Positions 15,818 through 38,645 of a stretch of DNA of 40,257 nucleotides are shown piece after piece. The number at the start of each line of letters is the position of its first letter. Positions within the stretch are counted from its first letter, which is position 1. The notes under the pieces were generated by a model. It saw only the letters and a program-made list of their open reading frames with translations. It searched no databases and was not told the DNA's origin. Source of the DNA: Anaerolineae bacterium. GTDB lineage: Bacteria > Chloroflexota > Anaerolineae > SpSt-313. Where the stretch lies: contig JAIMBM010000001.1 of the NCBI GenBank assembly GCA_023511475.1, forward strand, positions 1-40,257, in the 5' to 3' direction. Position numbers and translations under genes: made by a program.

Positions 15818-17263
15818 CTATCTGCGGCACAGGTCGACGATTAGCCGCAGCGTCTCGGGACCGCCGACGTTGCCCGGGAACACGATGTATGGCACACCCG
15901 GAAGGCTGCTCTCATCACCCAGCCTCCATACAGGGACTCCGGGCTGGACCTGCCCGAGCACGAGGGCACGGCGCACGCCGAGCGCTCGGGTTGCGAGGTC
16001 GCTCGAGGTAATGCCCCCTTTGGCTACGACGAACGCGGGCCGTGCGTGGTCGAGCACACGGCGGGTGACCTCGCACAGAGCCGCAGAGACGGCGCGGGCG
16101 ATGGCGAGGGAGTCCTCGGGGTCTGCGCCTGCGATGACTCTGCGGCTCGTGGCGATGACCACGTCGTGGCCCGCACGCAGACCTGCTGCCGCGGCCTTCG
16201 CCAGATTCGTGAGGGCCTCCGCCCGCTGCGCGGCGTCCAGCACCTCCGGTACGGATAGCTCGAGCACCTGTAGCTGCGGGAGCTCGAGGAGGGCGCGCAG
16301 CTGCACCGAGCTTCTCTGCACGTGAGAGCCTACGACCACGAGGCCCGGGCCGCGGTCTGCGTGAGGAAGGTAGAGTTCCTCCGCCGACAGGAGCCCTCGT
16401 TCGGGGATCAGACCTCTCACGCGCACAAACGACGCCGCCGTGCGGTATAGGAAGTGCTTTCCTGCTCGCTCGGCGTCGAGGAGGCCCGCAACAAGCACCT
16501 CCAGGTCGCGGTAAGCGGCTGCGTTGACCACTATGGGGGCGCGGTCTCGTGCTTCGAGGAGCGCTTTGGTCGCGGCGGCCGGCCCGGCGCAGCGGAGCAT
16601 CTCCAGGGTGATGCTCTGCACACGGGAAGCCGGGATGCCCCCACCGCTCTTTTCCTCAACCCAGCGGCGAAGGTTCGACTCATGGTACCGGAAGGCGGGA
16701 TCACGGGCGAACTCGGTGTCCGCGGCGGGCACAAGCTGGTCTCCCTGCGCTACCCAGTGAACGTCGCCGATGGTGTAGCGTCCGCCCTCGAGGAAAAAGG
16801 GCACGATCAGGGTGCCGTCAAAACGCATGCCGAGCCGGGATTCCAGGGCATCGGCGACGGCATCCACCTCTGCCGGAAAGTGGCCGCGCAGGGTGGAGTC
16901 GCTGCGGCTCACGACGACGAACTCCCGCCCGGCGAGGCGCGACGCGGCAGCTAGATTGCCGGCAATGTCCTGCGCGAGGGCGACCGCCTCGCCTTCGGGG
17001 AGGCTGCGTGAGTTGGTCAGCACGTAGAAGGTCGTTCCCGGCTCGCGGAGGGCCTCGGCGAGCTCGGAGACGGTCCACCCGGCGAGGATTGGGACGGCGT
17101 GCACCGTCTGGGTGCCCGTCGGGTCGTCATCCAGCACGACCACCTTCCGATCGAGGCGCGGCAACTGCCCCTTGGGATCGGGCAGAGGATTGTCCGGCCA
17201 GGGTGGTGGCAGGGAGGCAAGGAGGTCGCCCATGGGCATCGGGGTAGGTTGGGATGTGTCCAT
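15818..17263 (-). CDS. Four-carbon acid sugar kinase family protein (DUF1537; OtnK/DtnK-like)
   Basis: N-domain VVVLDDDPTGTQT and C-domain VVAKGGITSSD signatures. The start is uncertain: ATG 17263 is chosen, and TTG 17164 (after AAGGGG) is also possible. The track start at 17329 coincides with a -35 hexamer. Confidence 0.75.
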   Translation of the reverse strand: MDTSQPTPMPMGDLLASLPPPWPDNPLPDPKGQLPRLDRKVVVLDDDPTGTQTVHAVPILAGWTVSELAEALREPGTTFYVLTNSRSLPEGEAVALAQDIAGNLAAASRLAGREFVVVSRSDSTLRGHFPAEVDAVADALESRLGMRFDGTLIVPFFLEGGRYTIGDVHWVAQGDQLVPAADTEFARDPAFRYHESNLRRWVEEKSGGGIPASRVQSITLEMLRCAGPAAATKALLEARDRAPIVVNAAAYRDLEVLVAGLLDAERAGKHFLYRTAASFVRVRGLIPERGLLSAEELYLPHADRGPGLVVVGSHVQRSSVQLRALLELPQLQVLELSVPEVLDAAQRAEALTNLAKAAAAGLRAGHDVVIATSRRVIAGADPEDSLAIARAVSAALCEVTRRVLDHARPAFVVAKGGITSSDLATRALGVRRALVLGQVQPGVPVWRLGDESSLPGVPYIVFPGNVGGPETLRLIVDLCRR

Positions 17264-17300
17264 AGCGTCCGTCTCGTCTGTATCAAGATGGCAGGACCTG

Positions 17301-17329
17301 AGCTTACCACAGGGGCCGCAGGAGTGCAA
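17301..17329 (-). promoter_or_regulatory. Candidate promoter, TTGCAC-17 nt-(TGg)TAAGCT
   Basis: Read on the minus strand, -35 is at 17329-17324 and the extended -10 at 17309-17301. It is divergent from the MBL promoter. Confidence 0.35.
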
Positions 17330-17433
17330 AAAGGCGGCGGTTCTCTATGGGCTGGCGGGAGACGGGGACGCGCTGCGCGCCCCCGCCGTCCGACACCTGA
17401 TCAGGGGGCGCACACCGTCAATGGGCCGCACCT

Positions 17434-17462
17434 TTGACGAGGGTGGTCAGGTGTGGTACGAT
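17434..17462 (+). promoter_or_regulatory. Candidate promoter, TTGACG-17 nt-(TGg)TACGAT
   Basis: -35 at 17434-17439 and extended -10 at 17454-17462. The AGGAGG RBS at 17471-17476 and the ATG at 17481 follow immediately. Confidence 0.5.
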
Positions 17463-17480
17463 GGCCGCAGAGGAGGCGCG

Positions 17481-18266
17481 ATGGTCGAGCGGCTACACCT
17501 GCGAGCTCTTCTTCCTATGGCCATGGTCGCCGCTACGGCACTCACGGCGGCCTGTTCGGGGGGCGGCCCTCGGGGAGGTTTGGCCTCGCAGGCTCCGCCC
17601 TCTGCGCCGCCGGGCGGCGTGCGGGCCACTACCACAGCAGAGGAGGCGGTGGCAATGCTGGAGAATGTACACTGGCTGGGGCACGCGTCCTTCAGAATCG
17701 GCGACGGCAAGACCATCTACATTGATCCGTGGCAGCTGAAGGACGCTGTACCGGCGGACATTATCCTCATCACTCATGAGCATCACGATCACTGCTCGCC
17801 AGAGGACGTGAGCCGGATCCGCGGCCCCAACACCACGGTGGTTGCGACTGCCGACTGTGTCCCCAAGCTCGGCGGAGACGTGGTCGTGGTCAAACCCGGG
17901 GACAAGATCACCGTGCAGGGCGTCCCGGTGGAGGCTGTGCCTTCCTACAACCTGGACAAGCCCTTCCATCCCAGGAAGAACGGGTGGGTCGGCTATATCG
18001 TCACGGTGAATGGGGTGCGCATCTACCACGCCGGTGACAGCGATCACATCCCCGAGATGGACTCCCTGCAGGTGGATGTGGCGCTCCTGCCCGTGGGTGG
18101 CAAGTACACCATGACGGCGAGCGAGGCGGCGGCTGCGGCCAACGCCATGCGGCCGGGCGTGGCGGTCCCCATGCACTGGGGCGGCATCGTGGGGAGCCGG
18201 CAGGACGCTGAGCGCTTCCGGGATGAGTGCAAGGTCCCGGTGCAGGTTCTAGAGCCGGGTGCGTAG
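17481..18266 (+). CDS. MBL-fold metallo-hydrolase, secreted/lipoprotein-like
   Basis: HEHHDHC (HxHxDH) motif and N-terminal signal LLPMAMVAATALTAAC with a lipobox-like Cys. AGGAGG lies 4 nt upstream. The 384-aa track ORF is an upstream extension across the promoter region. Confidence 0.85.
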   Translation: MVERLHLRALLPMAMVAATALTAACSGGGPRGGLASQAPPSAPPGGVRATTTAEEAVAMLENVHWLGHASFRIGDGKTIYIDPWQLKDAVPADIILITHEHHDHCSPEDVSRIRGPNTTVVATADCVPKLGGDVVVVKPGDKITVQGVPVEAVPSYNLDKPFHPRKNGWVGYIVTVNGVRIYHAGDSDHIPEMDSLQVDVALLPVGGKYTMTASEAAAAANAMRPGVAVPMHWGGIVGSRQDAERFRDECKVPVQVLEPGA

Positions 18267-18285
18267 GCCGCGCTTTCCTGGGAAC

Positions 18286-18318
18286 AGCACCCGAGGGAGC
18301 ACGGCGCTGCCTCGGGTG
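18286..18318. terminator. Hairpin between convergent genes (terminator candidate)
   Basis: 10-bp stem gcacccgagg / cctcgggtgc with a 13-nt loop and no clear U-tract. Confidence 0.35.
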
Positions 18319-18346
18319 CCGTCAGTCGAGGGGCGGCACGGCTGCC

Positions 18347-18868
18347 TCAGTGGTACCGCTCAACTGTGAAGCGATAGAGCCTGATCGGCTCGCCCGGCCC
18401 TATGCCGGCCTTCCGGCGGGCGATGTCGACCTGGCAGTCTACCGTGTCGATTCCCTCCAGATCGGGAAGAAGGAGGCCGCGCCGGTAGCCGCTCTGCACG
18501 ATCACCCCATACTTCTTGGGGTCGAGCTTGTCGGGAGAGTTGACCGGCTCGGGAGGGGACAACACGTCGACCGAGATCTCCAGGTCAGCCAGCTCTGCGG
18601 GACGCACGGGCGGGAAGCGCGGGTCCTGCGTCGCGGCCATGATAGCATTGTGGATGACCTCGAGGGCCACGTTGGGCTGTGTGGGCTCGATGGTCCCGAT
18701 GCACCCGCGCAGCTCGCCATGAGCGTGGAGTGAGACAAATGCGCCCGCCCGGCGCCGGGCTTCGGGAGGCAGATCCGTCGGAGGGGTGATCTGGCGACCC
18801 TCGCGGACGTAGGTCTCTATGGTCTGTCTCGCCAGCTTGACCAGAGGATGATGCTCTTCGCGGGACAT
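18347..18868 (-). CDS. AMMECR1 domain protein
   Basis: [24 protein letters not shown] signature. The ATG at 18868 is preceded by GGAAGGAGG. Confidence 0.85.
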
Positions 18869-18906
18869 AGTGCCTCCTTCCCGCGCGCCCCGGAGGCGGG
18901 TCGCCT

Positions 18907-19932
18907 CTAGTCTGGAAGCTGCCACTCCAGGAGGCGGACCGGGTCGACAAGGCTTCCACCTACCCAGACGGCCCAGTGCAGGTGCGGGCCGGTGGAAAAG
19001 CCCGTCGAGCCGACCAGGCCGATAGTCTGACCCTGCTGGACGTACTGGCCGGCCTCGGCCTTGAGGGCGCTCAGGTGATAGTAGCCTGTGAACAGGCCCC
19101 AGCCATGGTCAATGATGACGATGTTGCCCCGAACCTTCAGTGGACGTGACAGGACGACACGCCCGGCGTTAGCGGCTGCTACCGGGACTCCCTCGTCGGC
19201 AGCGAGATCGAGCCCGCCATGCTGGTCGGTCGGCGGGCCGCCGTTGTAGCTGCGCAACATCCCATAGGTCGACGACACCTCGCCCTGCACGGGCAGTATG
19301 AAGTGACCCTGCCACAGTCGCTCGGGAGAGCGCTGCGACACAATTCCTGCGATCAGGCTGTTCTCTCTGGCGAGGGCTTCTGTGTCGAGCACGAGGTCCA
19401 GGGTCGAATTCTCCATGTCGACCCTCTCGATCTCGAACGTGCGCGAGCTGATCCGCAGAGATCGCTCCTCAACGACCGGCGGGCCGCTGTGGGGGTCTTC
19501 CGCCGTCACCAGGAGCGACCACGTTGTCGGCTTGCTGCCTGCCCAGATGCCGATCAGGCCATACCAGCGCCCGCCATCGTGAAAGAGCGGCAGGGGCTTT
19601 CCGGCGAGGGTGGCCGACACGGTCACCGGTCTGCTCGGCTCCACGATCAGGGTGCCGATCTCCCCCTGTGGCACGACTTCTGGCTCGAGGCGTACCGAGA
19701 GGGAAAGCGGCGCCGCAGTAGCGGTTGGTGTCGCCGTCGCCGTCGGCGTGGCCGTGGGGGTGCCGGTGGCGGTGGGGGTCAGCGTGGGGGTTGGGGTGGA
19801 TGCGGGCGTGGCCGTTGCCGGGGCGAGCAGCGGGAGTCCGCTGCAGCCGGTGGCAGCGGCTGGGAGTGCCATCACGGCCAGCACGGCTGCCAGCGAAGCC
19901 AGCAGTCGCCAGGGGCGTACACGTGGGTGCAC
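18907..19932 (-). CDS. M23 (LytM-type) metallopeptidase with signal peptide and Thr/Pro/Ala linker
   Basis: C-terminal HGGLDLAA...[20 protein letters not shown]...[16 protein letters not shown] motifs. The GTG at 19932 follows GAGGAAA and gives n-region/h-region/AATGC. The track start at 20028 is a -35 hexamer. Confidence 0.85.
19708..19818 (-). repeat. Low-complexity coding repeat (Thr/Pro/Ala linker)
   Basis: Encodes [37 protein letters not shown] within the M23 peptidase. Confidence 0.6.
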
Positions 19933-20056: not shown

Positions 20057-20668
20057 CTAGCCTGCGGCAGTACCGGTGCCCCCAGGCGAATCGCTCCGCG
20101 TGAGCCGGTAGACCAGCGCCATCCGCTGCAAGGCGGTCACGTTGGTGAGAATGGCCAGCACCCAGAGCACCGGCTGTAGCAGGCCGAGGAGGAGGCCCGC
20201 GGCGAGCACGAGGATGCGCTCGACGCGGGTGAACCAGCCCTCCTGGCAACGGAGTCCGAGGCCTTCGGCGCGCGCCCGGGTGTAGCTGACAAGCTGGGAG
20301 CCGAGAAGGGCAATGTACGTGAGGTAGAGCCCTTCGCGGTTGTCGGCGAGGGCGAAATACACGAGCAGCCCAAAGAACAGGGCGCCCTCCGAGAAGCGAT
20401 CGAGCACCGAGTCCAGGAAGGCCCCGAAGCGTGTGGCCTGCCCTGAGACGCGAGCGAGCGCCCCGTCAAAGGCATCCAGCGCTGAGAATAGCAGGATGAG
20501 CGCTCCTGCCAGTCGGAGGCGACCGCTGGCCAGCAGCCAGGCATTGACCAGGCTCAGGAGGAATCCGATGACCGTGAGTGCGTTCGGGGTGACTCCGAGA
20601 CGGTGTAGTGCACGTGCGATCGGTTCGACGAGCCAGCGCGTGTAGCGGCGCAAATGGTCACTGAGCAT
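20057..20668 (-). CDS. CDP-alcohol phosphatidyltransferase (phosphatidylinositol-phosphate synthase-like by context)
   Basis: DAFDGALARVSGQATRFGAFLDSVLD matches D-x2-DG-x2-AR-x8-G-x3-D-x3-D. It is multi-helix hydrophobic and overlaps the GT4 gene end by 11 nt. Confidence 0.8.
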   Translation of the reverse strand: MLSDHLRRYTRWLVEPIARALHRLGVTPNALTVIGFLLSLVNAWLLASGRLRLAGALILLFSALDAFDGALARVSGQATRFGAFLDSVLDRFSEGALFFGLLVYFALADNREGLYLTYIALLGSQLVSYTRARAEGLGLRCQEGWFTRVERILVLAAGLLLGLLQPVLWVLAILTNVTALQRMALVYRLTRSDSPGGTGTAAG

Positions 20669-21803
20669 CTTTGCAGGGTACCTTTCCGTCCAGCAGTTGC
20701 AGATAGTAGTCCATGACGCGGCGCGCGACCCTGTCCCACGCGAGGCCCCGTGCAGTCTCCTGCCCGCAGGCGCCCATGCACGCTCGCTCCGCCGGATTCT
20801 CGAGGAGGCGGATCAGCGCGTCCGCAAGCCCCTCAGGGTCTGCGGGTTGCACGAGGAGTCCCTCCCGCCCGTGCGTCAACACGCTTCGATAGCCAGGGAT
20901 GTTGGAGGCCACGACCGGACGGCCCGCCGCCATAGCCTCGAGGAGCACGATGCCAAAGCTCTCGAACCCGGTTGAGGGCGCGCAGAAGACGTCGCAGGAT
21001 CGAAAGCAGCGGGGCTTTTCCTCGTGAGGAATGAACCCGAGAAAGCGGACACCATGGATGCCCTCGCGGCGCGCTTCGAGCACGTAAGGCTCCCTGTCCT
21101 CCCTGCTATAGGCCCCGGCTACGAGGAGCTGGGCGTTGGGGATGCGTTTGCGCACCCGCCCGAAGGCACGCAGCAGGTACTCAAAGCCCTTGCGCTTCTC
21201 AAGGCGCCCGAAAAAGAGGATGGTGGGCCGGCCCTCGCCGTACTCAGGAAGCGGCTCGACGTCACGGCTGTAGAACTCGTAGTCTATCCCGTTGGGGATG
21301 ATCGTATAGTCTGCGGGGAAGTAGCGCCAGATCGCGTCCCGCGCGGCTTCGGAGACGGCTATCCTGCCATCGAGCCGATCGAAGAAAGGCTGCAGGAGGT
21401 GTCGGCCGTACTCATAGCCGGGGTGACTGTCCTCGCGGTAGGCATGGAACGTCCCAACGTTGAGCGAGTGCGAGTGCCGGAGGACGGCGAGGGGCAGCAG
21501 CGGCATGAGTGGCTCGTGCAGATGCACAACCTCAAAGCTCATCTCGCGGAGGATGCTCTTCACCCGCCGGTATGCCCGCGGCGAGAGGGACACTCGCGCC
21601 ACAGACCCGCTCGACGGCAGGGGAAAGACTCCGCCTGCGACCTTGAGGACGTTGCTGTGGAGCTCTTCCTCGTTCTTGCTGGAAGTGGCGAGCACCCACA
21701 CTTCATGGCCCCACTGGCGGAACACGCGGTCGAGAGCAGCGATGTGCTCCGTCACACCGCCGGGATAGGGGTAATCGTAAGGTGAGACCAACGCGATCCT
21801 CAA
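20658..21803 (-). CDS. GT4-family glycosyltransferase (PimA-like mannosyltransferase by context)
   Basis: MRIALVSPYDYPYPGGV N-terminus and E-x7-E region GFESFGIVLLEAMAAGRPVVAS. TTG start with GAGGAGG 7 nt upstream. Confidence 0.85.
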   Translation of the reverse strand: MRIALVSPYDYPYPGGVTEHIAALDRVFRQWGHEVWVLATSSKNEEELHSNVLKVAGGVFPLPSSGSVARVSLSPRAYRRVKSILREMSFEVVHLHEPLMPLLPLAVLRHSHSLNVGTFHAYREDSHPGYEYGRHLLQPFFDRLDGRIAVSEAARDAIWRYFPADYTIIPNGIDYEFYSRDVEPLPEYGEGRPTILFFGRLEKRKGFEYLLRAFGRVRKRIPNAQLLVAGAYSREDREPYVLEARREGIHGVRFLGFIPHEEKPRCFRSCDVFCAPSTGFESFGIVLLEAMAAGRPVVASNIPGYRSVLTHGREGLLVQPADPEGLADALIRLLENPAERACMGACGQETARGLAWDRVARRVMDYYLQLLDGKVPCKDAQ

Positions 21804-21834
21804 CTTGTTGCCTCCTCAACCACTTGGAATGGTC

Positions 21835-22797
21835 TCACCGAGCTGGTGGCCCCCCTGGCGAGGAGACGTTCCCATCCGGGAGCCACAGCGGCTGAAAGTA
21901 GACCCACTGATCGGGATAGCGTGACACGTACCTGGCAAAGATGGAGAGCACGTTGTGTACCGCATTCTCGACGTCGCGCTCCGGGTCGGAGGTATGCTCG
22001 ATTAATATCTCGGGCTCGACGACGATGTGAAAGGCGTTGTCTGGCGAGCGTCGGCAGAAGGCTACGACGAGGCCTGCTCCGGTGCGGAGGGCAAGCCTGG
22101 CATACCCGTCTGGCACCCGAGCCGGCCGGCCCAGGAAATCGACGACGCGCCCTGCATCCGTGACGTTGCGGTCGAGGGCCGAGCCCACGATCGCGTTGCT
22201 GTGCAAGGCACGGAAGACCGGGCGCAGCCAGCTATCGATCGGGATGAAGGACAGGCCATGGCTCTCCCGTGCCCGGCGGACGTATTCGAACAGACGCTCG
22301 GGCCGCAGATGCTCGGCGATGGCGATGACCCGGTAGCCACGCAACGCCAGTATCTGGCCCGCGAGGTCAAAGTTGCCAAAGTGGGCGCTCGTGAGCACGA
22401 CGCCACGCCCGCGCGCGAGGGCTGCATCGAGGTGCTCCAAACCGACCAGCGTGCGCACGCTGGTGCGGATATCTTCCTCGTCCAGAGCCGGCACGCGCAG
22501 GAGGTCGAAGTAGTTCTTGACCTGGTTGCCGTAGATGCGTCGGGCGATCTCTCTCACGCGCGGCGACCCCGAGGGCTCGCCGAGGACGTGCGAGATATTG
22601 TCCTCTACGTGGCAGCGCAGCGGAGACACCCGGTAGACCAGGGTACCGAGCCGCCCTGCGAGGCGGTAGCCGACAGATGCCGGTATGTGCGGCGCGAGTG
22701 CACCTGCAGCGCGGAACAGGTAGTAGGTTAGACCGTCCCAGACCATGAAGGAGGCTACCTCTTTTCCGTGCTGACCGGCGCAGGGAAGGCGGGCCAC
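21835..22797 (-). CDS. LpxL/HtrB-family lysophospholipid acyltransferase (PatA-like by context)
   Basis: H-x4-D acyltransferase motif SAHFGNFD. The GTG at 22797 follows GGAG and sits ~20 nt downstream of a predicted TSS. The alternative ATG at 22746 lacks an RBS. Confidence 0.8.
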   Translation of the reverse strand: MARLPCAGQHGKEVASFMVWDGLTYYLFRAAGALAPHIPASVGYRLAGRLGTLVYRVSPLRCHVEDNISHVLGEPSGSPRVREIARRIYGNQVKNYFDLLRVPALDEEDIRTSVRTLVGLEHLDAALARGRGVVLTSAHFGNFDLAGQILALRGYRVIAIAEHLRPERLFEYVRRARESHGLSFIPIDSWLRPVFRALHSNAIVGSALDRNVTDAGRVVDFLGRPARVPDGYARLALRTGAGLVVAFCRRSPDNAFHIVVEPEILIEHTSDPERDVENAVHNVLSIFARYVSRYPDQWVYFQPLWLPDGNVSSPGGPPAR

Positions 22798-22824
22798 CTT
22801 GATCTCCGCCGCGCCGGCGCGCGC

Positions 22825-22853
22825 AGTGTAGCCCAGATGGGAGTTGCTGTCAA
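22825..22853 (-). promoter_or_regulatory. Candidate promoter, TTGACA-17 nt-TACACT
   Basis: Read on the minus strand, -35 is at 22853-22848 and -10 at 22830-22825. The hexamers are identical to those of the promoter at 20000-20028. Confidence 0.5.
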
Positions 22854-23090
22854 GGCTTCTTCAGAGGGGGGGCATCCAAGGTCGGTCAGCAGATTCGCAG
22901 CCAGGCAGCCAGCGGGGGGCGCCCTGTTGGCAACCGGGCTTTGCGCTTCGCAGGAGCCCGGCGCAGGACCTTTTCTTGTCCTGGGGTAGGGCCGGGCTGC
23001 TGCCCAGCAAAACACCCGGCTGCAGCCCAGGCATTGACGCATCTTGGGTGCACCCTCAGAGGGCAGAAGCGCGGCAAGGCCGGCCGGTTC

Positions 23091-23119
23091 TTGATGGTTT
23101 GCCGGGTGTGGCGTAGAAT
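23091..23119 (+). promoter_or_regulatory. Candidate promoter, TTGATG-17 nt-TAGAAT
   Basis: -35 at 23091-23096 and -10 at 23114-23119. The ATG at 23134 is only 14 nt after the -10, so the leader is very short. Confidence 0.5.
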
Positions 23120-23133
23120 GGAAGCCGTGAGGC

Positions 23134-24015
23134 ATGCAGGCCATGGGAGATCATCTGGAGAGTCGCTCCGTGCATCCGCTGTGGCGCAGGGCGTGGGAGG
23201 TGCGGCAAGAGCTCTTTGGGCGGCACATCCGCTTTGAGCGGCCCTCGGCGACCTTGGCGGTGAGCGTCACCGGCAAGGCCTGTGCGCTGCGGTGTGCACA
23301 CTGCAACGGCCACTATCTGGCCGGGATGCGCACACTCGACGATCCCGCACTCGGCCGGGCGCGCAGCCTTCTCATCTCGGGCGGTTGCGACCGCGAGGGC
23401 CGGGTGCCGGTGTTGCCCCGCCTCGAGGAGATCGCCCGGCTGGCGGCGGGCAGGCGCCTGAACTGGCATGTGGGTCTGATCGATGAGGCTACAATGCAGG
23501 CTATCCGACCCTATGCACACGTCATCAGCTTTGACTTTGTCGGGGACGATGACACCATCCGGGACGTGTACGGCCTTGACAAGACGGTGAGCGACTATGT
23601 GGCCTGCTACGAGATGCTGCGCCGGCACGCGTGCGTTGTGCCGCATCTCACCATCGGGCTCCACGGGGGACGGGTTCGGGGCGAGCGGCGCGCTCTGGAC
23701 CTCCTCAGCTCCCTGGGTGTTGAGGCGCTGGTGCTCATCGTTTTCATCCCTACACCAGGGACGGCGTATGCCGGGTGCGAGCCACCTTCAGTCGGTGAGG
23801 TTGTCGATCTCCTCGCCGAGGCTCGTGTGCGTTTCCCGAAGGTGCCCGTGCGCCTGGGTTGCATGCGCCCAGGCGGGGAGTATCGCGAGCAACTCGATCC
23901 CCTTGCAGTGGAGGTGGGGCTAAACAGCATCGTAAACCCGGCCCGGGCCGCGGTCTTGGCGGCGCAGCGGCTGGGGCTGCGCATCGAATGGGGCGATGAA
24001 TGCTGTGTACTCTAG
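23134..24015 (+). CDS. Radical SAM protein (candidate LipS-type lipoyl synthase component)
   Basis: C-x3-C-x2-C at CALRCAHC. Additional conserved-looking Cys residues (SGGCDREG, LGCMRPGG, C-terminal GDECC). It is first in an apparent operon with gcvTHPAPB. Confidence 0.75.
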   Translation: MQAMGDHLESRSVHPLWRRAWEVRQELFGRHIRFERPSATLAVSVTGKACALRCAHCNGHYLAGMRTLDDPALGRARSLLISGGCDREGRVPVLPRLEEIARLAAGRRLNWHVGLIDEATMQAIRPYAHVISFDFVGDDDTIRDVYGLDKTVSDYVACYEMLRRHACVVPHLTIGLHGGRVRGERRALDLLSSLGVEALVLIVFIPTPGTAYAGCEPPSVGEVVDLLAEARVRFPKVPVRLGCMRPGGEYREQLDPLAVEVGLNSIVNPARAAVLAAQRLGLRIEWGDECCVL

Positions 24016-25004
24016 GCGACACGGCGCCGGATGACGGCCTGGATGTGCGCGTATCCTCAGGGTCGGCAGCGGTCCTCGGGCTGGCCACGCTTCGCGTGGA
24101 GGTACCCCCGACGACGGCGTACCTGATGCTAGGTGAGCGGTGCTCGCTCGACTGTGCCTTCTGCGCCCAGGCGCGGGCGAGCACTGCGCCAGCGGACCAG
24201 CTCTCGAGGGTCATCTGGCCGAAGTATCCATTGGCGACGGTCATCTCGCGATTGGAGCCCGCCTATGCCTCGGGTGCAATCGTTCGCTGCTGTCTTCAGG
24301 TCGTCGCCGCTCCTGGTCACGCTGCCCGTACGCGCGAGGTCGTCCGCGCCATCCGGCGAGAGGCGGCACTCCCGCTGTGCGTCTGCACGCGGGTGAGCCG
24401 TCGCGAGGAGATGGGCGAGCTGCTCGCCCTCGGGGTCGAGCGCGTGACCCTGGCATTGGACGCGGCTAGCGAGCATGTGTATAATCGGGTGAAAGGGCGC
24501 CGCTGGGAGAAGACCCTTGGCCTCCTGCGGGAGGCGGCGCGGGCGTATCCCGGGCGCGTAGGCACGCACATCATCGTCGGCCTGGGTGAGACTGAAGCCG
24601 AGGTTGCGGCGCTTCTCCAGGAGATGCACGACCTGGGGGTCCTTACGGCGCTTTTCGCCTTTACGCCAGTCCCAGGCACGGCGCTGGAGGGCGAGCAGCC
24701 GCCGTCGGAAGTAAGCTACAGGCGCTGCCAGGTGGCGCGGTATCTCATCGTGAACGGCCTGGCGCGGGCGGAGCGGTTCCGCTACTCAGCGAAGGGGGAG
24801 ATAGCTTCCTACGGCCTACCCGCCGGAGCCCTGGAGGAGGTGCTCCGCACGGGAGAAGCTTACCGCACGTCGGGGTGCTCCGGATGTAACCGCCCCTTCT
24901 ACAACGAGCGACCGGGCGGTCCCCTCTACAATTACCCTCGTCCGCTGTCCGCAGCGGAAGCCAGATCGGCTACTGCGCTCGTCATGGCGAGCCTGACCCA
25001 CTGA
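24000..25004 (+). CDS. Radical SAM protein, BioB/LipA-like (candidate LipS-type lipoyl synthase component)
   Basis: C-x3-C-x2-C at CSLDCAFC, extra Cys clusters (RCCLQV, LPLCVCTR, TSGCSGCNRP) and the TIM-barrel style motif HIIVGLGET. A 16-nt overlap with the preceding radical SAM gene suggests translational coupling. Confidence 0.75.
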   Translation: MLCTLGDTAPDDGLDVRVSSGSAAVLGLATLRVEVPPTTAYLMLGERCSLDCAFCAQARASTAPADQLSRVIWPKYPLATVISRLEPAYASGAIVRCCLQVVAAPGHAARTREVVRAIRREAALPLCVCTRVSRREEMGELLALGVERVTLALDAASEHVYNRVKGRRWEKTLGLLREAARAYPGRVGTHIIVGLGETEAEVAALLQEMHDLGVLTALFAFTPVPGTALEGEQPPSEVSYRRCQVARYLIVNGLARAERFRYSAKGEIASYGLPAGALEEVLRTGEAYRTSGCSGCNRPFYNERPGGPLYNYPRPLSAAEARSATALVMASLTH

Positions 25005-25073
25005 CGAAGGGTCAGGGCAGAGGCGGCAACGGGGCCGCTCGGTACTATGCTGGTAGAGGTCAAGGAGGAACGC

Positions 25074-26180
25074 ATGGCGAGGAGGACAGAGCTCTACGCA
25101 CGCCACGTCGCGTTGAACGGCCGGATGATCGACTTTGCGGGCTGGCTGCTGCCCGTGCAGTACCCCACAGGTCCCATCGAGGAGCACCATACCGTCCGCC
25201 GGGCAGCGGGACTCTTCGACATCGATCATATGGGGCAGATCGTAGTCAGGGGCCCGGACGCGCTGCCCTTTCTGCAGCATGTGCTGACCACGGACATCAG
25301 CCGGATGGCAACGGGCGAGGCCCGATACTCGCTCGTCTGCTACGACGACGGCGGAGTCGTTGACGATGTGTTTGTATACCGGTTGCCCGACCGGTACTTT
25401 ATCGCGATCAACGCCGCCAACGTGGAGAAGGACACCCTCTGGTTCCGCTACCATGTCGGGCGGTTCCAGGCCACGGTTGAGAACGTCTCTGAGGAGACGT
25501 ACATGTTGGCGTTGCAGGGGCCGCAGGCGGAGGCGGTCCTCCAGAAGCTGACCCCGGCGCAACTGGACAAGCTGCCCTTCCATCGGGCTACAGAGAGCAA
25601 GGTGGCCGGCGTGCCGACCCTGATCGGACGCACCGGCTATACGGGTGAGGACGGCTTTGAGCTGTTCTTCCCTCGCGAGAAAGCCACTCTGCTGTGGGAT
25701 GGCCTCATGGAGGCCGGCGCCCCCCTCGGGCTCAAGCCGATAGGCCTGGCCGCACGCGACAGTCTCCGCTTCGAGCCCAAGCTGCCCCTCTATGGGCAGG
25801 AGATCTCGGCGACGATCAACCCACTGGAAGCCGGATTGGGTTGGGCGGTCTCTTTCGAGAAAGGGGAGTTTGTGGGGCGGGGCGCCCTTCTGAAGGTCAG
25901 GCTGGAAGGCCCGCGCCGGAAGCTGGTGGGGCTCGAGATGGTCGATAGGGGGGTGCCGCGGCACGGCTATGCGGTGGCGCTCGATGGGCGCACCATCGGG
26001 GAGGTGACGACAGGGATGTATGCGCCAACGCCTGGGAAATACCTCGCCCTCGCCTTGGTGCCACCGGCCCAGGCTGCTATCGGCACGGAGGTACAGGTGA
26101 TGATCCGCGGTGAGGCGAAACGGGCCAGGGTCGTCAAGACACCTTTCTACACGCCAGCCTACCGGCGTCAGCCGGCATGA
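25074..26180 (+). CDS. gcvT: Glycine cleavage system aminomethyltransferase (T protein)
   Basis: LYARHVALNGRMIDFAGWLLPVQY, GLFDIDHMGQ and RTGYTGEDGFE motifs. ATG at 25074 after AAGGAGG. Confidence 0.95.
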   Translation: MARRTELYARHVALNGRMIDFAGWLLPVQYPTGPIEEHHTVRRAAGLFDIDHMGQIVVRGPDALPFLQHVLTTDISRMATGEARYSLVCYDDGGVVDDVFVYRLPDRYFIAINAANVEKDTLWFRYHVGRFQATVENVSEETYMLALQGPQAEAVLQKLTPAQLDKLPFHRATESKVAGVPTLIGRTGYTGEDGFELFFPREKATLLWDGLMEAGAPLGLKPIGLAARDSLRFEPKLPLYGQEISATINPLEAGLGWAVSFEKGEFVGRGALLKVRLEGPRRKLVGLEMVDRGVPRHGYAVALDGRTIGEVTTGMYAPTPGKYLALALVPPAQAAIGTEVQVMIRGEAKRARVVKTPFYTPAYRRQPA

Positions 26181-26209: not shown

Positions 26210-26605
26210 ATGAAGGTGGACAAGGCGAGTCGCTATACCCGGACGCACGAGTGGGTGCGCCTCGAAGGTGACGAGGCCGTCTCGGGCATCACGGACTATG
26301 CCCAGGAGCAGCTGAGCGACGTCGTCTACGTAGAGCTGCCGGCCATAGGGGAGCACTTTGGCAAGGGTGAGGTCTATGGAGTGGTCGAGTCGGTGAAGGC
26401 GGCTTCCGACAACTATATGCCTGTCGGAGGTACGGTCACGGCCGTCAATGAGAGCCTCGCCGACGAGCCCCAGCAGGTGAACACCGACCCGTATGGCGCG
26501 GGGTGGATGATCCGATTCAGGCCCGACGACCCGGCCGAGATCGAGCAACTGATGGATGCGGCCAGCTACGAGGAGTACGTCTCGAGCCTGGAAGGAGCAC
26601 ACTAG
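26210..26605 (+). CDS. gcvH: Glycine cleavage system H protein (lipoyl carrier)
   Basis: YTRTHEWV, and VESVKAASD containing the lipoyl-lysine. Confidence 0.95.
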   Translation: MKVDKASRYTRTHEWVRLEGDEAVSGITDYAQEQLSDVVYVELPAIGEHFGKGEVYGVVESVKAASDNYMPVGGTVTAVNESLADEPQQVNTDPYGAGWMIRFRPDDPAEIEQLMDAASYEEYVSSLEGAH

Positions 26606-27967
26606 ATGTCCTATGTTCCGCATACCGACGCAGACCGGCGGGAGATGCTGGCCGCGATAGGCGTGGGCTCCGTCGAGGAGCTGTTCGCGGTCGTGCCGGA
26701 GTCGGTGCGATTCCCCGAGCTGGAGCTGCCGGAACCCCTTTCGGAGGCCGAGGTGCTGGAGGAGCTCCGGGTGCTGAGCGACTCGAACGCAGACCTCGAT
26801 CACCTGGCTTGCTTCCTCGGGGCTGGCGCCTATCGCCATTATATCCCCAGCGTTGTGCAGCACGTGATCGGGCGTTCCGAGTTCTACACGGCCTACACGC
26901 CCTACCAGCCGGAGATCAGTCAGGGCACGCTGCAGACGATCTTTGAGTACCAGAGCATGATCTGTGGCCTGACGGGCATGGACGTCTCGAACGCCTCGCA
27001 CTATGACGGGGCTACGGCCATGGCCGAGGCGGTGATCATGGCCATAAGCGTGGGCCGCGGCAAGCGGCGCAAGGCGGTCGTCGCGCCTGCGGTGCACCCG
27101 CAGTACCGGGAGGTGGTGAGGACCTACACTCAGGGCATGGGCGTTCAGGTCGTCGGAGACGAGGACCTGACGGCCGACATCGGCCGGTTGGCAGAGCGGA
27201 TAGATGGCGATACAGCCTGCGTTATCGTGCAGGTGCCTGACTTTTTCGGCGGGCTTGATTCACCGGAGACGCTTTCGGCCCTGGCCGATGCAGCCCATCG
27301 GGCAGGGGCGCTGTTTGTGGTGTCGGTTGACCCCATCTCGTTGGGGCTGCTCAAGCCGCCGTCAGAGTATGGGGTGGACATTGTCGTGGGTGAGGGGCAG
27401 TCCCTCGGGCTCCCACCGAGCTTTGGGGGACCCTATTTGGGGTTCTTCGCCTGTCGTGAGGAGTACGTGAGGCGAATGGCCGGGCGGCTGGTCGGTGAGA
27501 CGGTCGATAGCCAGGGCCGCCGCAGCTACGTGCTCACGCTGGCCACCCGGGAGCAGCACATCCGGCGCGAGCGCGCCACCTCCAACATCTGCACCAATGA
27601 GGCGCTGTGCGCGCTGGCGGCGTCCGTGTATCTGGCGGCGCTGGGGCCACGGGGTCTGCGGCAGGTGGCGGAGCTGTGCTACCACAGGTCGCACTATGCG
27701 GCGAACCGGATCGCGCAGGTGCCGGGCTTTGCGGTCCTCGACAACCGCCCGTTCTTCAAAGAGTTCGTGGTTCGCTGCCCGATCCCTGTGGAGGAGATCA
27801 ACGCCGAGCTGATGGAGTGGGATATCCTCGGGGGCTACGACCTCGGCCGCGACTATCCGCATCTCGCGGGGCACATGCTCCTCTGTGTGACAGAGCTCAA
27901 CACCCGAGCCCAGATCGACGACCTGGTGATGGCGTTGCGCATCATCGGTGAGGGAGGCGGGGAGTGA
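26606..27967 (+). CDS. gcvPA: Glycine dehydrogenase (aminomethyl-transferring) subunit 1
   Basis: [25 protein letters not shown] and [14 protein letters not shown] motifs. Starts directly after the gcvH stop. Confidence 0.95.
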
Positions 27968-29457
27968 CCGAGAAACTCATCTATGAGCTCAGCCGGCCGG
28001 GCAGATGCGCCTGCTTCCTGCCCAGGACCGATGTTCCGCCAGTGGAGCTGCCGTCGGAGTGGGTGCGTGAAGAGGCACCGCTTCTCCCCGAGGTCAGCGA
28101 GGTCGATCTCGTGCGGCACTATGTGCGGCTATCGCAGCTCAACTATGGGGTCGATACAGGCTTTTACCCGCTGGGTTCCTGCACCATGAAGTATAACCCC
28201 AAGGTCAACGAGGAGGCCTGTCGGCTGCCTGGCTTTGCGCAGACGCATCCGCTGCAGCCCGAAGACACAGTGCAGGGCAACCTGAAGCTGATGTACGAGC
28301 TGCAGTGCTATCTCCGGGAGATCAGCGGATTCGCTGCGGTCAGCCTGCAACCCGCCGCTGGGGCGCACGGCGAGCTCGCAGGGATCCTGATCATGCGCGC
28401 GTACCATCTGGATCGGGGCGATACGGGCCGGTCTCGCATCCTGATTCCCGATTCTGCGCATGGGACCAACCCCGCGAGCACGACGATGAGCGGGCTCGAG
28501 GTTGTGCAGCTCAAGTCGGATTCGAGGGGGAACGTCGATCTCGACGACCTGCGGGCCAATCTGGATGACCGCGTCATCGGCATGATGCTCACGAACCCGA
28601 ACACGTTGGGGCTGTTCGACGAGCATCTGGAGGAGGTTGCGCGCCTCGTGCACGGGGCGGGCGGCCTGATGTATGGCGACGGAGCGAACCTGAACGCGCT
28701 GATGGGCATCGCCAAACCGGCGGCACTGGGCTTTGACGTCATGCACTTCAATCTGCACAAGACTTTCTCGACGCCGCACGGGGGCGGCGGTCCGGGCTCG
28801 GGCCCGGTGGGCGTCACGCAAGAGTTGGCGAGGTTCCTGCCGGGCCCCGTCGTGGTACGGGTTCTCGACGAGGAGGCCTGCACGTGCAGGCCGGACGATG
28901 AGCACGACGAGTTCTGTTACCGCTATGAGCTGTCTCAGCCGGGTTCGTCCATCGGGCGGCTGAAGGCGTTCCACGGCAACTTTGGGGTGATGGTGCGGGC
29001 TTACACCTATATCCGCATGTTGGGGTCGGCGGGGCTTCGGCAGGCCAGCGAGGATGCTGTGCTCAACGCCAACTACCTGCAGGCCCGGCTCAAAAGAGTC
29101 TATCCGGTTCCCTATGAACGGCCCTGCATGCACGAGTTTGTGCTCGAGGGGCGACTTGCGGATGCACCGGGCATTCGGGCGCTGGATATCTCCAAGCGCC
29201 TCATGGACTTTGGGATGCATCCGCCGACGAACTATTTCCCGCTGATCGTGCACGAGGCTCTGATGATCGAGCCGACCGAGACGGAGAGCAAGGAGACGCT
29301 CGATGCGTTCGTGGATGCGATGACGCGCATTGCGGAGGAGGCGCGAACGCAGCCCGAGCTACTGCGCGATGCACCCCATACGACGCCCGTTGGGCGGCTG
29401 GACGAGGTCCGTGCAGCACGCGAGCCGCGTCTGCGATGGAAGCCGCCGGCGGCCTGA
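27964..29457 (+). CDS. gcvPB: Glycine dehydrogenase (aminomethyl-transferring) subunit 2 (PLP-binding)
   Basis: [10 protein letters not shown] and the PLP-lysine context [20 protein letters not shown] overlap with gcvPA. Confidence 0.95.
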
Positions 29458-29570
29458 GACCAGGCTGGTCGGCTCAGCAGGCACGCGCAAGGGTCCGGCT
29501 GCCGTACAGCTGGCGGCCGGACCCTGCTGTGTGTGCAGGGCGTGGGGGCGTTCGCCTGGTGGGCCCCGGC

Positions 29571-29599
29571 TTGTGCCGCTGCGTGAGCCGGGCTAGAAT
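29571..29599 (+). promoter_or_regulatory. Candidate promoter, TTGTGC-17 nt-TAGAAT
   Basis: -35 at 29571-29576 and -10 at 29594-29599, ~35 nt upstream of the mobB ATG. Confidence 0.45.
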
Positions 29600-29633
29600 G
29601 GGCTGGACTTGTGACAGGAGTGGAGCAGGGGAG

Positions 29634-30143
29634 ATGTCTTCGGTACCGGTGGTGTCGGTGGTGGGGCGCTCGAACGTGGGCAAGACGACGCTGCTGGAGA
29701 GCCTGATTGTCGAGCTGAAGCGACGGGGCTACCGGGTGGCGACGGTCAAGCACGATGTGCACGGCTTTGAGATGGACCGCCCGGGAAAGGATAGCTGGCG
29801 GCATGCGCAGGCGGGGAGTGACCTGGTGGCCATTATCTCGCCGCAGCGGTTCGCCATGATCGGGCGGACAGATGGGGAGATTGCGCTGGACCAGCTGGTC
29901 GAGCACCTGCCGGTGTCGGTAGACATTGTGTTGACAGAAGGCTACAAGCGGGGGGACAAGCCCAAGATCGAGGTCTCGCGGGCTGCATGTGGGCGGGAGC
30001 TCCTGTGCAGTGCGGAGGAGTTGCTGGCGCTGGTGACGGACGAGCCGTATCCGGGGATGCCGGTACCGCAGTTTGGCCTGGACGAGGTAGGGGCGCTGGC
30101 AGACTTGCTGGAGGTTCGTCTTCTGGAACGCCCCTTCGCATAG
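29634..30143 (+). CDS. mobB: Molybdopterin-guanine dinucleotide biosynthesis adapter protein MobB
   Basis: VVSVVGRSNVGKTTLLE P-loop, VATVKHDVHGFEMDRPGKDSWRH and EGYK motifs. The ATG at 29634 lies downstream of the candidate promoter. The track ORF start at 29436 overlaps gcvPB. Confidence 0.85.
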   Translation: MSSVPVVSVVGRSNVGKTTLLESLIVELKRRGYRVATVKHDVHGFEMDRPGKDSWRHAQAGSDLVAIISPQRFAMIGRTDGEIALDQLVEHLPVSVDIVLTEGYKRGDKPKIEVSRAACGRELLCSAEELLALVTDEPYPGMPVPQFGLDEVGALADLLEVRLLERPFA

Positions 30144-30258: not shown

Positions 30259-31125
30259 CTAGGGGAGATACTTGCCGATCAGGAGGGCAAGCTGCTCCTT
30301 GCGCGCCGGAGGGATGGCCGCAGGATCCGTTATGATGGAGTTCTCCAGGGCGTGGGGGCAGGGGCAGGTGCGCTCCCGGACGATCCGCTGCACGGCGCTC
30401 CGGATGATGGCCTGGGCCGTCTGCACGTTCTGCTGCAGGTTGCGCACGACCACCTCTACCGTCACCGGCTCCTCGCTGACCTTCCACACGTCATAGTCGG
30501 TGACCATGGCCAGCGTCGCATAGCAGATCTCGGCCTCGCGCGCCAGCTTGGCCTCCGGCAGGGCCGTCATCCCAATGATGTCCATGCCCCACTGCCGGTA
30601 CACCTCCGACTCGCCCCGAGTCGAGAACTGCGGCCCCTCGATGACCACAAAGGTGCCGCCACGGTGCACGCGAACGCCCTGGTCCCGCGCCGTCTCGTAC
30701 AAGACGGCGCTGAGGTCAGGACAGAACGGGTCCGCGAAGCCAATGTGTGCCACAACCCCCTCGCCAAAGAAGGTTGCCGGCCTGATTCCCTTAGTGCGGT
30801 CGAAAAGCTGATCGGGGATCACCACATCGAGTGGCGCGATCTCCTCCCGGAGGGAGCCACACGCGCTTACCGAGATGATGCGCTCGACCCCCAGGGACTT
30901 GAGCGCATAGATATTGGCCCGCGAGGGCACCTCGGAGGGTGAGTGCCGGTGCCCACGGCCGTGGCGCGGTAGAAAGGCCACGCTCTCGCCAGCCAGCCTG
31001 CCAAGCACAATCGCGTCGCTCGGTGGTCCGAAGGGCGTTTCGAGACTGACCTCCTCGATGTCGGTGACGCCCTCCATCCTGTAGAGGCCGGTGCCGCCAA
31101 TCACGGCGATGCGAGCGCTGGGCAT
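30259..31125 (-). CDS. mtnP: S-methyl-5'-thioadenosine phosphorylase
   Basis: IAVIGGTGLY, FLPRHGRGH, ISVSACGSL, GPQFSTRGES and IGMTALPEAKLAREAE motifs. CCAGGAGGTG RBS. Confidence 0.9.
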   Translation of the reverse strand: MPSARIAVIGGTGLYRMEGVTDIEEVSLETPFGPPSDAIVLGRLAGESVAFLPRHGRGHRHSPSEVPSRANIYALKSLGVERIISVSACGSLREEIAPLDVVIPDQLFDRTKGIRPATFFGEGVVAHIGFADPFCPDLSAVLYETARDQGVRVHRGGTFVVIEGPQFSTRGESEVYRQWGMDIIGMTALPEAKLAREAEICYATLAMVTDYDVWKVSEEPVTVEVVVRNLQQNVQTAQAIIRSAVQRIVRERTCPCPHALENSIITDPAAIPPARKEQLALLIGKYLP

Positions 31126-31261
31126 GTTGTCACCTCCTGGAGCCTGGGCTGGCTGTGCCTGTCCCTCGGCACCCTGGCCGAGCGACAGGCAGCGGCAGAT
31201 GCGCGTGATCTGCGCAACGGAAGGTGGTCCCTGCTCCGGCTGTCCGGAGCAGGTCGCAGCA

Positions 31262-31296
31262 CGTCAAAAGGGCGCAGGTCTCCACGGACCTGCGCC
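31262..31296 (-). terminator. Rho-independent terminator of ssrA
   Basis: 10-bp stem ggcgcaggtc / gacctgcgcc with a 6-nt loop, followed on the minus strand by CTTTTGA. It starts 3 nt after the tmRNA 3' end. Confidence 0.75.
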
Positions 31297-31299
31297 CGA

Positions 31300-31718
31300 G
31301 GTGGAGATGGCGGGAATCGAACCCGCGTCCAGAAAGTTCGACCAGCGATGTACTACAAGCTTAGTCGGCGTTTTGGATCTCACCCTCCCGGACCTCCACC
31401 GACCGAGTTCCCGGAGGGCCAGCCGATCCCGCCGGCTCATCGCCTGCGGCTTGAGCCCGCCTATCGGCGTCGACAGGCCGCACCCTGCTGTGCCTGGCGC
31501 CCGTCCCCGAGCCAGCGGGGTGCACCCGGGGCGGGCGTGATCACGCTAGGTGATCGGGCGCCGTCTGCGCCCTAGCCGCCGCTTAGGCAGCCATGGCGTA
31601 GGCGTACGCCGGAGTCTGTGCTCTGTTGGCACTTGTCGTTTTGCCCCTGATTTGCGAGGTTGGGGCACCTCGGCTTGCAATCGCGGGCCAGCCCTCCCTG
31701 TCGAGACCTGTCATCCCC
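31300..31718 (-). ncRNA. ssrA: Transfer-messenger RNA (one-piece tmRNA)
   Basis: The minus strand starts GGGGAUGACAGGUCUCGACAGGG and ends GGACGCGGGUUCGAUUCCCGCCAUCUCCACC. The acceptor stem GGGGAUG/CAUCUCC has the G3:U wobble. An internal tag frame at 31630-31586 reads ANRAQTPAYAYAMAA, followed by UAA (31585-31583). Only CC of the CCA end is encoded. Confidence 0.92.
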
Positions 31719-31726
31719 GCACACAC

Positions 31727-31755
31727 ATTATACCACGGGTGGGGGGTGCTGTCCA
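31727..31755 (-). promoter_or_regulatory. ssrA promoter, TGGACA-17 nt-(TGg)TATAAT
   Basis: Read on the minus strand, -35 is at 31755-31750 and the consensus -10 TATAAT at 31732-31727, preceded by TGg. The mature tmRNA 5' end is 8 nt downstream. Confidence 0.65.
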
Positions 31756-31834
31756 GAATCAGCGACCTTTTGGGATGTAGTTCATTCGGCGGGCAAGGTC
31801 ATTTGTGCTGCTGCCAGGGCCCGCACCCCCATGA

Positions 31835-31878
31835 CCCCCTTGCCCAAGTCGATATGCGGACCGACTTGGGCAAGGGGG
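31835..31878 (-). terminator. Strong hairpin downstream of the tad operon (terminator candidate without a U-tract)
   Basis: Perfect 17-bp stem cccccttgcccaagtcg / cgacttgggcaaggggg with a 10-nt loop, 22 nt after the cpaF stop. Confidence 0.45.
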
Positions 31879-31900
31879 CCGCCCGCCTTGAGGCGTACAG

Positions 31901-33247: not shown

Positions 33248-33311
33248 GCTTGCTCATTCCTCGCCTCGTAATGCTTTGGGCACCGAGCTTGTCAGCTTCC
33301 CGCCATGTGGC

Positions 33312-34235: not shown

Positions 34236-34250
34236 CGGTCGTGACCTCCT

Positions 34251-35204: not shown

Positions 35205-35205
35205 G

Positions 35206-37223: not shown

Positions 37224-37251
37224 CGTCACACCTCCGCTCGTGGATTTGGGC

Positions 37252-38208: not shown

Positions 38209-38645
38209 GGCTCAATCCTCATGATCGACCGGGCGCGGAGGGTCACCCCCGCCGGGCCCTCGTCGAAGAGCTGTGCGATCATCAGGGTAACGGGCACGAA
38301 CCTGCAGGAGACATCCACCTGCACGTGCTCGCCATCTGGCCACGATATGGCCACGCCATAGGCATCGGCATCCGCAGAGTCGATACCGAAGAGCACGATG
38401 CGCTCGCGGGCGGCCTGGAGCATGGCTGCGGCGTTGCCCGGATCAACGGAGCCAACCCTCGCGGCCTCCCGAGCGGCGCTGGCAACCATGCTGCGGACAT
38501 ACACGGCACGGGACAGGTCGACGATACCCAGCACCAGAAACATCAGTACCAGCGAGGCCAGCGCAAACTCGGCGAGCGCCTGACCTCGCTGGAGGCGCTT
38601 CCCGAGGCGATTGCCGCGACTCCCGAAAGCTGCCTCGGTTTCCAT
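38205..38645 (-). CDS. tadE: TadE-like minor pilin
   Basis: Prepilin-type N-terminus LQRG/QALAEFALASLVLMFLVLGIVDL (G-x4-EF). Starts directly after the previous stop. Confidence 0.75.
   Translation of the reverse strand: METEAAFGSRGNRLGKRLQRGQALAEFALASLVLMFLVLGIVDLSRAVYVRSMVASAAREAARVGSVDPGNAAAMLQAARERIVLFGIDSADADAYGVAISWPDGEHVQVDVSCRFVPVTLMIAQLFDEGPAGVTLRARSIMRIEP

Follow-up and report, generated by a model that had tools for sequence, protein, structure and literature searches.

The window analyzed here is the complete 40,257-bp contig of a metagenome-assembled genome (MAG) of an Anaerolineae bacterium, and the element in question is a pair of adjacent radical S-adenosylmethionine (SAM) genes, here called lipS1 and lipS2, that lies on the plus strand directly ahead of the glycine-cleavage genes gcvT, gcvH, gcvPA and gcvPB. 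A first-pass annotation made from the sequence alone had placed open reading frames (ORFs) of 293 and 334 amino acids (aa) at 23134-24015 and 24000-25004, noted their radical SAM motifs CALRCAHC and CSLDCAFC and an overlap of 16 nt, and proposed a two-protein lipoyl synthase; the ORFs and both motifs lie exactly there, and the overlap, read from the sequence, occupies 24000-24015. The longest lipS1 ORF does run from 23134 and encodes 293 aa, but the GenBank entry, which names the product just "radical SAM protein", starts at ATG 23143 and gives 290 aa (P0001). For comparison we scanned GTDB species representatives with a LipS2 alignment and kept the best 80 species-level loci. The first ATG, at 23134, is missing from the closest relative in this survey (L001), which leads us to prefer ATG 23143 as probably the real start, with lipS1 spanning 23143-24015 and encoding a radical SAM lipoyl synthase subunit predicted to insert sulfur at C6. 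The 334-aa product of lipS2 (24000-25004) is the counterpart subunit, with predicted sulfur insertion at C8.

Both proteins scored above the NCBIfam cut-offs for the two families proposed. ORF1 reached 281.6 bits with the LipS1 equivalog NF053742 (cut-off 230) and matched model positions 1-268 of 268, while ORF2 reached 353.5 bits with the LipS2 equivalog NF053743 (cut-off 270) and matched positions 1-292 of 292. The characterized enzymes of Thermococcus kodakarensis, LipS1 (TK2109) and LipS2 (TK2248) (Jin et al. 2020, as cited in PMC9585515; Neti et al. 2022, PMC9585515), served as references, their sequences being taken from the supporting information of PMC9585515. In end-to-end BLASTP alignments, ORF1 shares 40% identity with T. 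kodakarensis LipS1 over 268 aa (E = 3e-57), and ORF2 shares 37% identity with its LipS2 over 302 aa (E = 4e-64). From these profile scores and alignments we consider it very likely that ORF1 and ORF2 are LipS1 and LipS2, the split BioB-like lipoyl synthase first characterized in T. kodakarensis.

The cluster ligands of the T. kodakarensis enzymes have been defined by mutagenesis (PMC9585515), and all of them are kept in the window proteins. Conservation was followed in two alignments of 24 sequences each (A1 for LipS2, A2 for LipS1; 37-83% identity, archaeal enzymes included), with the LipS1 ligands numbered on the 293-aa form given by the longest ORF. The CX3CX2C motif CALRCAHC occupies ORF1 residues 50-57, and its C50/C54/C57 correspond to T. 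kodakarensis C27/C31/C34; CSLDCAFC occupies ORF2 residues 48-55, and its C48/C52/C55 correspond to C39/C43/C46. Each triplet is invariant, in A2 and A1, respectively. The initial suggestion that further cysteines could hold auxiliary Fe-S centers fits the alignments as well. Among the other cysteines of ORF1 (85, 158, 167, 215, 243, 290 and 291), C243, C290 and C291 align, together with H171, to the auxiliary-cluster ligands C230, C276, C277 and H159 of T. kodakarensis LipS1 and are invariant in A2. Among those of ORF2 (3, 97, 98, 127, 129, 243, 293 and 296), C98, C293 and C296 align, together with H190, to C85, C276, C279 and H178 of T. kodakarensis LipS2 and are invariant in A1. The window pair thus resembles the archaeal enzymes in comprising two separate BioB-like radical SAM proteins with identical CX3CX2C motifs and identical auxiliary ligand sets, in the ECCV(L/M) end of LipS1 and in the LipS2 motif GCxGCNRPYYNERPG. 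The differences are that the T. kodakarensis proteins are archaeal, whereas the window pair is bacterial and known from sequence, and that the T. kodakarensis genes stand >130 genes apart, whereas those of the window are adjacent, overlapping and placed within the predicted gcv operon.

A further difference concerns C127 and C129 of the window LipS2 (24378-24386), which occupy the positions of S113 and S115 in T. kodakarensis LipS2. Those serines lie near the auxiliary cluster in the T. kodakarensis LipS2 model and are dispensable on mutation (PMC9585515). Among the Chloroflexota homologs C127 is common and C129 rarer, and either residue could act as an additional cluster ligand.

Immediately downstream, as the first-pass annotation had read them, follow the genes of the glycine-cleavage system in the order gcvT-gcvH-gcvPA-gcvPB, all on the plus strand and all above their equivalog cut-offs. 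The aminomethyltransferase gene gcvT (25074-26180; TIGR00528, 379 bits against 235.85; NF001567, 424.9 bits) has a longest ORF starting at 25047, and its start is most likely ATG 25074, which is preceded by the Shine-Dalgarno sequence AAGGAGGA at 25062-25069. It is followed by gcvH for the lipoyl carrier (26210-26605; TIGR00527, 144.9 bits against 115.85), gcvPA for glycine dehydrogenase subunit 1 (26606-27967; NF001696, 636.7 bits against 364) and gcvPB for subunit 2 (27964-29457; NF003346, 739.3 bits against 441). The predicted lipoyl-lysine of GcvH is K63, within ESVKAASD, a peptide that is identical in the T. kodakarensis system and is the very octapeptide used as the LipS1/LipS2 substrate in vitro (PMC9585515). 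GcvH is most likely the lipoylation target of the pair.

The reaction sequence that we infer from the characterized family, covering activity, order of sulfur insertion and substrate, would begin with octanoylation of GcvH Lys63 by a transferase or ligase encoded off this contig. LipS2 would then cleave one SAM at the [4Fe-4S] cluster held by C48/C52/C55, abstract hydrogen from C8 and attach there a sulfur from its own auxiliary cluster (C98, C293, C296 and H190). In the last step LipS1 would spend a second SAM at its C50/C54/C57 cluster and insert at C6 a sulfur that its auxiliary cluster (C243, C290, C291 and H171) provides, yielding lipoyl-GcvH. Both the order, C8 then C6, and the chemistry, with one SAM and one sulfur from the enzyme's own auxiliary cluster per step, are those reported for the family (PMC9585515).

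To follow the gene order across the 80 survey loci, LipS1, LipS2, the Gcv proteins and an LplA-like protein were mapped onto them by tblastn. The co-occurrence of the pair with gcv genes that the first reading of the locus had anticipated is frequent: gcv genes are directly adjacent on the same strand in 30 of the 80 loci, in two orders and two phyla. The pair precedes the gcv genes, as in the window, in 11 loci, all of them Chloroflexota. The order gcvT-gcvH-gcvPA-gcvPB-lipS1-lipS2 is found in 19, mostly Bacillota and usually followed by an LplA-type gene, in genera including Desulfosporosinus, Desulfitobacterium, Thermincola, Sporomusa and Desulfitispora. Within the Chloroflexota order, the 83%-identical relative L001 has the same lipS1-lipS2-gcvT-gcvH-gcvPA-gcvPB arrangement and the same flanks, and three loci at 58% identity (L006-L008) have the same six genes amid wholly different flanking genes. 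In three others (L002, L014 and L015) a gene for an LplA catalytic domain stands between lipS2 and gcvH. One of these, L002, comes from another Chloroflexota MAG (GCA_014360755.1) in which gcvT is fused to a serine hydroxymethyltransferase gene: the predicted 1207-aa fusion (16143-19766 of that locus, minus strand) lies opposite lipS1-lipS2-lplA-like-gcvH-gcvPA-gcvPB, and there is no separate gcvT. Since two gene orders occur in two phyla, the comparison argues for a functional rather than accidental linkage between the lipS and gcv genes.

This recurrence bears on whether the pair serves GcvH in particular. One alternative accepts that the proteins are LipS1 and LipS2 but denies that they are dedicated to GcvH: every lipoyl domain in the cell, or the GcvH-like LbpA of a sulfur-oxidizing sHdr system, would be their target, and their position beside gcv would reflect co-regulation or chance. 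It draws on the history of the family, which was first noticed beside shdr-lbpA, and on the 42% of LipS1/S2-containing bacteria that have sHdr (PMC10332631); in addition, 50 of our 80 related loci have no adjacent gcv gene, and canonical LipA likewise acts on several carrier proteins. Against it, NCBIfam scans of window ORFs found no sHdr, LbpA, DsrE or CCG-domain genes, the window H protein passes the gcvH equivalog and fails the 'not_gcvH' and GcvH-related models, and the full gcvT-H-PA-PB linkage recurs in two phyla and two gene orders. We regard this alternative as possible but rather doubtful, and dedication of the pair to GcvH as likely, judging by gene order and family membership.

The two lipS genes are themselves closely bound. 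Across the survey, lipS1 lies directly upstream of lipS2 on the same strand in 40 of the 80 loci, and the frame relation seen in the window is shared by 39 of the 42 loci with an adjacent pair. The lipS2 ATG arises from the codons GAA-TGC, which encode Glu289-Cys290 of LipS1 and thus fall within its C-terminal ECC ligand motif. Although just 14 of the 158 Glu codons across the six operon genes are GAA, this position has it in the window and in most Chloroflexota relatives. In the Bacillota the junction is built differently: there lipS2 probably starts at an ATG that gives a 4-nt overlap. Because the window ATG sits inside the Glu-Cys codons of the ECC motif, the junction supports translational coupling of lipS1 and lipS2.

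A consensus scan for sigma-70-like promoters confirmed the site TTGATG-17-TAGAAT at 23091-23119 (+) that had first been proposed for the pair, with matches at 9 of 12 positions. The 336-nt divergent spacer upstream of lipS1 has diverged from that of L001, including an indel of ~200 nt, except in two conserved blocks. The first contains this plus-strand candidate, with both hexamers and the 17-nt spacing identical in L001; the second contains a minus-strand TTGACA-17-TACACT (22853-22825) that faces a divergent operon of acyltransferase, glycosyltransferase and phosphatidylinositol-phosphate synthase genes. That operon (20057-22797, minus strand) encodes a phosphatidylinositol-mannoside-type acyltransferase, a GT4 glycosyltransferase and the phosphatidylinositol-phosphate synthase, and looks like a pathway for phosphatidylinositol-mannoside-like glycolipids in a Chloroflexota MAG.

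On the other side of the pair, the first-pass annotation had seen neither a promoter nor a convincing terminator in a 69-nt gap before gcvT, and this agrees with our results. With gcvT starting at 25074 the lipS2-gcvT spacer is 69 nt long (25005-25073, plus strand); it is near-identical in L001, and the consensus scan found no promoter-like or terminator-like site within it. A hairpin at 24992-25016, over the lipS2 stop codon, was rejected as an intrinsic terminator, having no U-tract and an ordinary stability (z = -0.73 against shuffles). Rfam, searched at gathering thresholds across the whole window and at E <= 1 across 22700-25200, gave no family in the latter interval, the glycine riboswitch included, either upstream of lipS1 or in the lipS2-gcvT gap. 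From the arrangement of these signals, lipS1-lipS2-gcvT-gcvH-gcvPA-gcvPB is likely a single transcription unit expressed from 23091-23119.

The early description did overlook one promoter-like site. The scan counted 4 such sites in the 7.6-kb region, where shuffled sequences gave 1.0 +/- 1.0, and the overlooked one, TGGACG-17-TATAAT, lies inside lipS2 at 24457-24485 (+) and, with 10 of 12 matches, outscores the upstream candidate. This internal site raises the alternative that gcvTHPAPB is transcribed separately from lipS1-lipS2 and driven from 24457-24485, so that their adjacency would have no regulatory meaning. Besides its higher score, the site uses two rare codons, TAT and AAT, and is kept in L001 despite the synonymous changes around it. 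As a conserved feature it was rejected, for L001 alone has it and all more distant relatives sharing the gene order are without it; nor was any terminator-like element found between lipS2 and gcvT, and an internal promoter would supplement read-through, not exclude it. We therefore judge separate transcription units to be unlikely. The site itself may be a lineage-specific internal promoter, or it may arise incidentally from the coding sequence.

Some observations nevertheless weigh against the proposal of a coupled, co-transcribed synthase dedicated to GcvH. The upstream promoter candidate scores only 9/12, the internal site could drive an additional, independent gcv transcript, and lipS2 might instead start at GTG 24045, which would abolish the overlap with lipS1. 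The window also offers no enzyme to supply the octanoyl substrate. NCBIfam scans of ~40 of its ORFs gave no lipA, lipB, lipM or lplA, consistent with the absence of lipA, lipB and lplA reported from first inspection, and a search of the six-frame translation with a hidden Markov model (HMM) built from 36 lipS2-adjacent BPL proteins of the LplA/LipB superfamily had a best E of 1.3, so that neither an octanoyltransferase nor a lipoate ligase was found in the 40-kb contig. The ligase gene may lie on another contig; the window being the entire contig, the rest of the genome may likewise hold a canonical lipA.

The AlphaFold2 models of LipS1 (pLDDT, the per-residue model confidence, 94.7; BioB/HydE-like fold) and LipS2 (pLDDT 87.1) both have BioB, HydE, PylB and LipA/LIAS as their nearest solved folds, which is the sulfur-insertion branch of the radical SAM enzymes. 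To our knowledge no LipS structure has been solved, and the fold search therefore confirms the class and not the family. For the same reason the PDB sequence search, which returned no meaningful match for ORF1 and weak BioB and LipA matches for ORF2 (E = 1e-4 or worse), is uninformative on LipS membership. Pfam reported only the generic Radical_SAM family for ORF2 and the same family, under its cut-off, for ORF1. The comparison with neighboring subfamilies that had been suggested for the pair gave no unrelated assignment. Canonical LipA, which neither ORF had seemed to resemble, was rejected at 29.2 bits for ORF2 and no match for ORF1 with TIGR00510 (cut-off 310); of its hallmarks, CX4CX5C is absent from the cysteine spacings of both proteins and RSSY from both translations. 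BioB was rejected at 18.4 bits for ORF1 and 62 bits for ORF2 with TIGR00433 (cut-off 225), and for both proteins the scores with the PylB and MoaA models were far under the cut-offs. That the pair might be biotin-synthase-like or other radical SAM enzymes, with a sulfur-insertion or maturation role unrelated to lipoate, is thus very improbable: some sources do label homologs 'biotin synthase' or 'biotin synthase-related radical SAM protein', BioB and HydE are the closest solved folds and Pfam stays generic, but the LipS-specific models were passed where the BioB equivalog was not, lipoyl formation was demonstrated for T. kodakarensis proteins carrying the identical 'biotin synthase' label (PMC9585515), and the window scans gave no bio genes nearby.

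Set beside LipA/LIAS, the predicted LipS1/LipS2 pair shares the net reaction, the addition of two sulfurs to a protein-bound octanoyl group, as well as the reliance on radical SAM chemistry and on an auxiliary [4Fe-4S] cluster that is sacrificed. LipA differs in being a single polypeptide, with the CX4CX5C motif at its N-terminus and RSSY at its C-terminus, and in the order of sulfur addition, since LipA acts at C6 first and LipS2 at C8 first. The two synthase families also operate in bacterial sulfur oxidizers, in the sLpl(AB)-LipS1/S2 pathway (PMC10332631), and Chloroflexota are among the phyla recorded as carrying LipS1/LipS2 (Tanabe et al. 2023, PMC10332631). That study stresses ligase-linked clusters and sHdr systems, typically lipS1-slpl(AB)-lipT-lipS2 beside shdr-lbpA, whereas the window pair is contiguous and stands beside canonical gcv genes; the window contains no BPL_LplA_LipB protein, no lipT, no FAD oxidoreductase neighbor and no sHdr.

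The closest parallels in gene content are the Bacillota clusters of the type gcvT-gcvH-gcvPA-gcvPB-lipS1-lipS2-lplA-like (L031, L054, L065, L083 and L084; Desulfosporosinus, Desulfitobacterium, Thermincola and Sporomusa), which comprise the same functions apart from the ligase and share the lipS1-lipS2 coupling. They differ from the window in having the pair at the tail rather than the head of the operon, an LplA-catalytic-domain gene after lipS2, and a probable lipS2 start at the 4-nt-overlap ATG rather than inside the ECC codons. In published genome-neighborhood networks, the bacterial LipS1/LipS2 genes already appear clustered with those for GCV_H and BPL_LplA_LipB (PMC9585515). An explicit account of embedding in a gcvTHP operon was not found in the text or supplements of PMC10332631, whose supplements offer HMM lists alone on gcvT/gcvP synteny or Anaerolineae. 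Both the LipS family with its chemistry and the frequent proximity of its genes to GCV_H are already on record in the literature; the incremental additions are the head-of-operon placement, a pair with no ligase beside it and a lipS2 start set within the ECC codons.

More speculatively, in this lineage the pair may have become a fixed, coupled module at the head of the gcv operon, with no adjoining ligase and with the lipS2 start set in the ECC codons. Such a module could mean production of the two subunits at 1:1 stoichiometry and their assembly into a complex, and could make GcvH the sole entry point of lipoate assembly, with a relay from GcvH to other enzymes as in Bacillus; Cys127 and Cys129 might in addition alter the ligation of the auxiliary cluster. 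We offer this as a tentative extension that we think less likely to be right than wrong.

Several other genes of the window deserve record. Downstream of gcvPB, the longest mobB ORF (29436-30143, plus strand) overlaps gcvPB by 22 nt, with the MobB domain beginning at about residue 65-72; in L001 MobB is called at 169 aa, starting 170 nt after gcvPB. The true mobB start is probably downstream, and the gene may therefore be uncoupled from the operon. An S-methyl-5'-thioadenosine phosphorylase gene (30259-31125, minus strand) lies just downstream of the operon. Such phosphorylases can also salvage 5'-deoxyadenosine, a by-product of radical SAM enzymes; the gene is found in L001 as well, but its position is probably coincidental because the more distant L006 lacks it. 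Another glycine-using enzyme, a fused alpha-beta glycine-tRNA ligase GlyQS (12429-15413, plus strand; 994 aa, 1190 bits), is encoded 8 kb upstream in synteny conserved with L001. At 18347-18925 (minus strand), adjoining an M23 peptidase gene, lies a gene for AmmeMemoRadiSam system protein A (AMMECR1); no Memo-like or radical SAM partner stands next to it in the window. A full-length transfer-messenger RNA (tmRNA) gene occupies 31299-31718 (minus strand; Rfam RF00023, 147.7 bits), which makes the ORFs that the six-frame list places over 31091-31904 spurious; smpB (39783-40244, minus strand) lies 8 kb away. Between them stands a Tad/Flp pilus cluster (31901-39056, minus strand) encoding a TadA/CpaF ATPase, a CpaE-like response-regulator/ATPase, CpaB, a TadE-like protein and several ORFs without a family match.

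Taken as a whole, the locus leaves current understanding of lipoate synthesis unchallenged. Naming the pair LipS1 and LipS2 corrects the label "radical SAM protein" given to ORF1 and the labels "radical SAM protein" and "biotin synthase" carried by homologs of both, and would explain how lipoyl-GcvH can be made in a Chloroflexota MAG in which no LipA is visible. If the six genes are co-transcribed, the enzymes that mature the cofactor would be co-produced with the complex that needs it, and cofactor maturation would be matched to apoprotein synthesis. More broadly, the gene-order survey indicates that the split lipoyl synthase often lies within the gcv operon, at its head in Chloroflexota and at its tail in Bacillota, a modest addition that lends genomic support to GcvH as a physiological LipS substrate outside the sulfur oxidizers.

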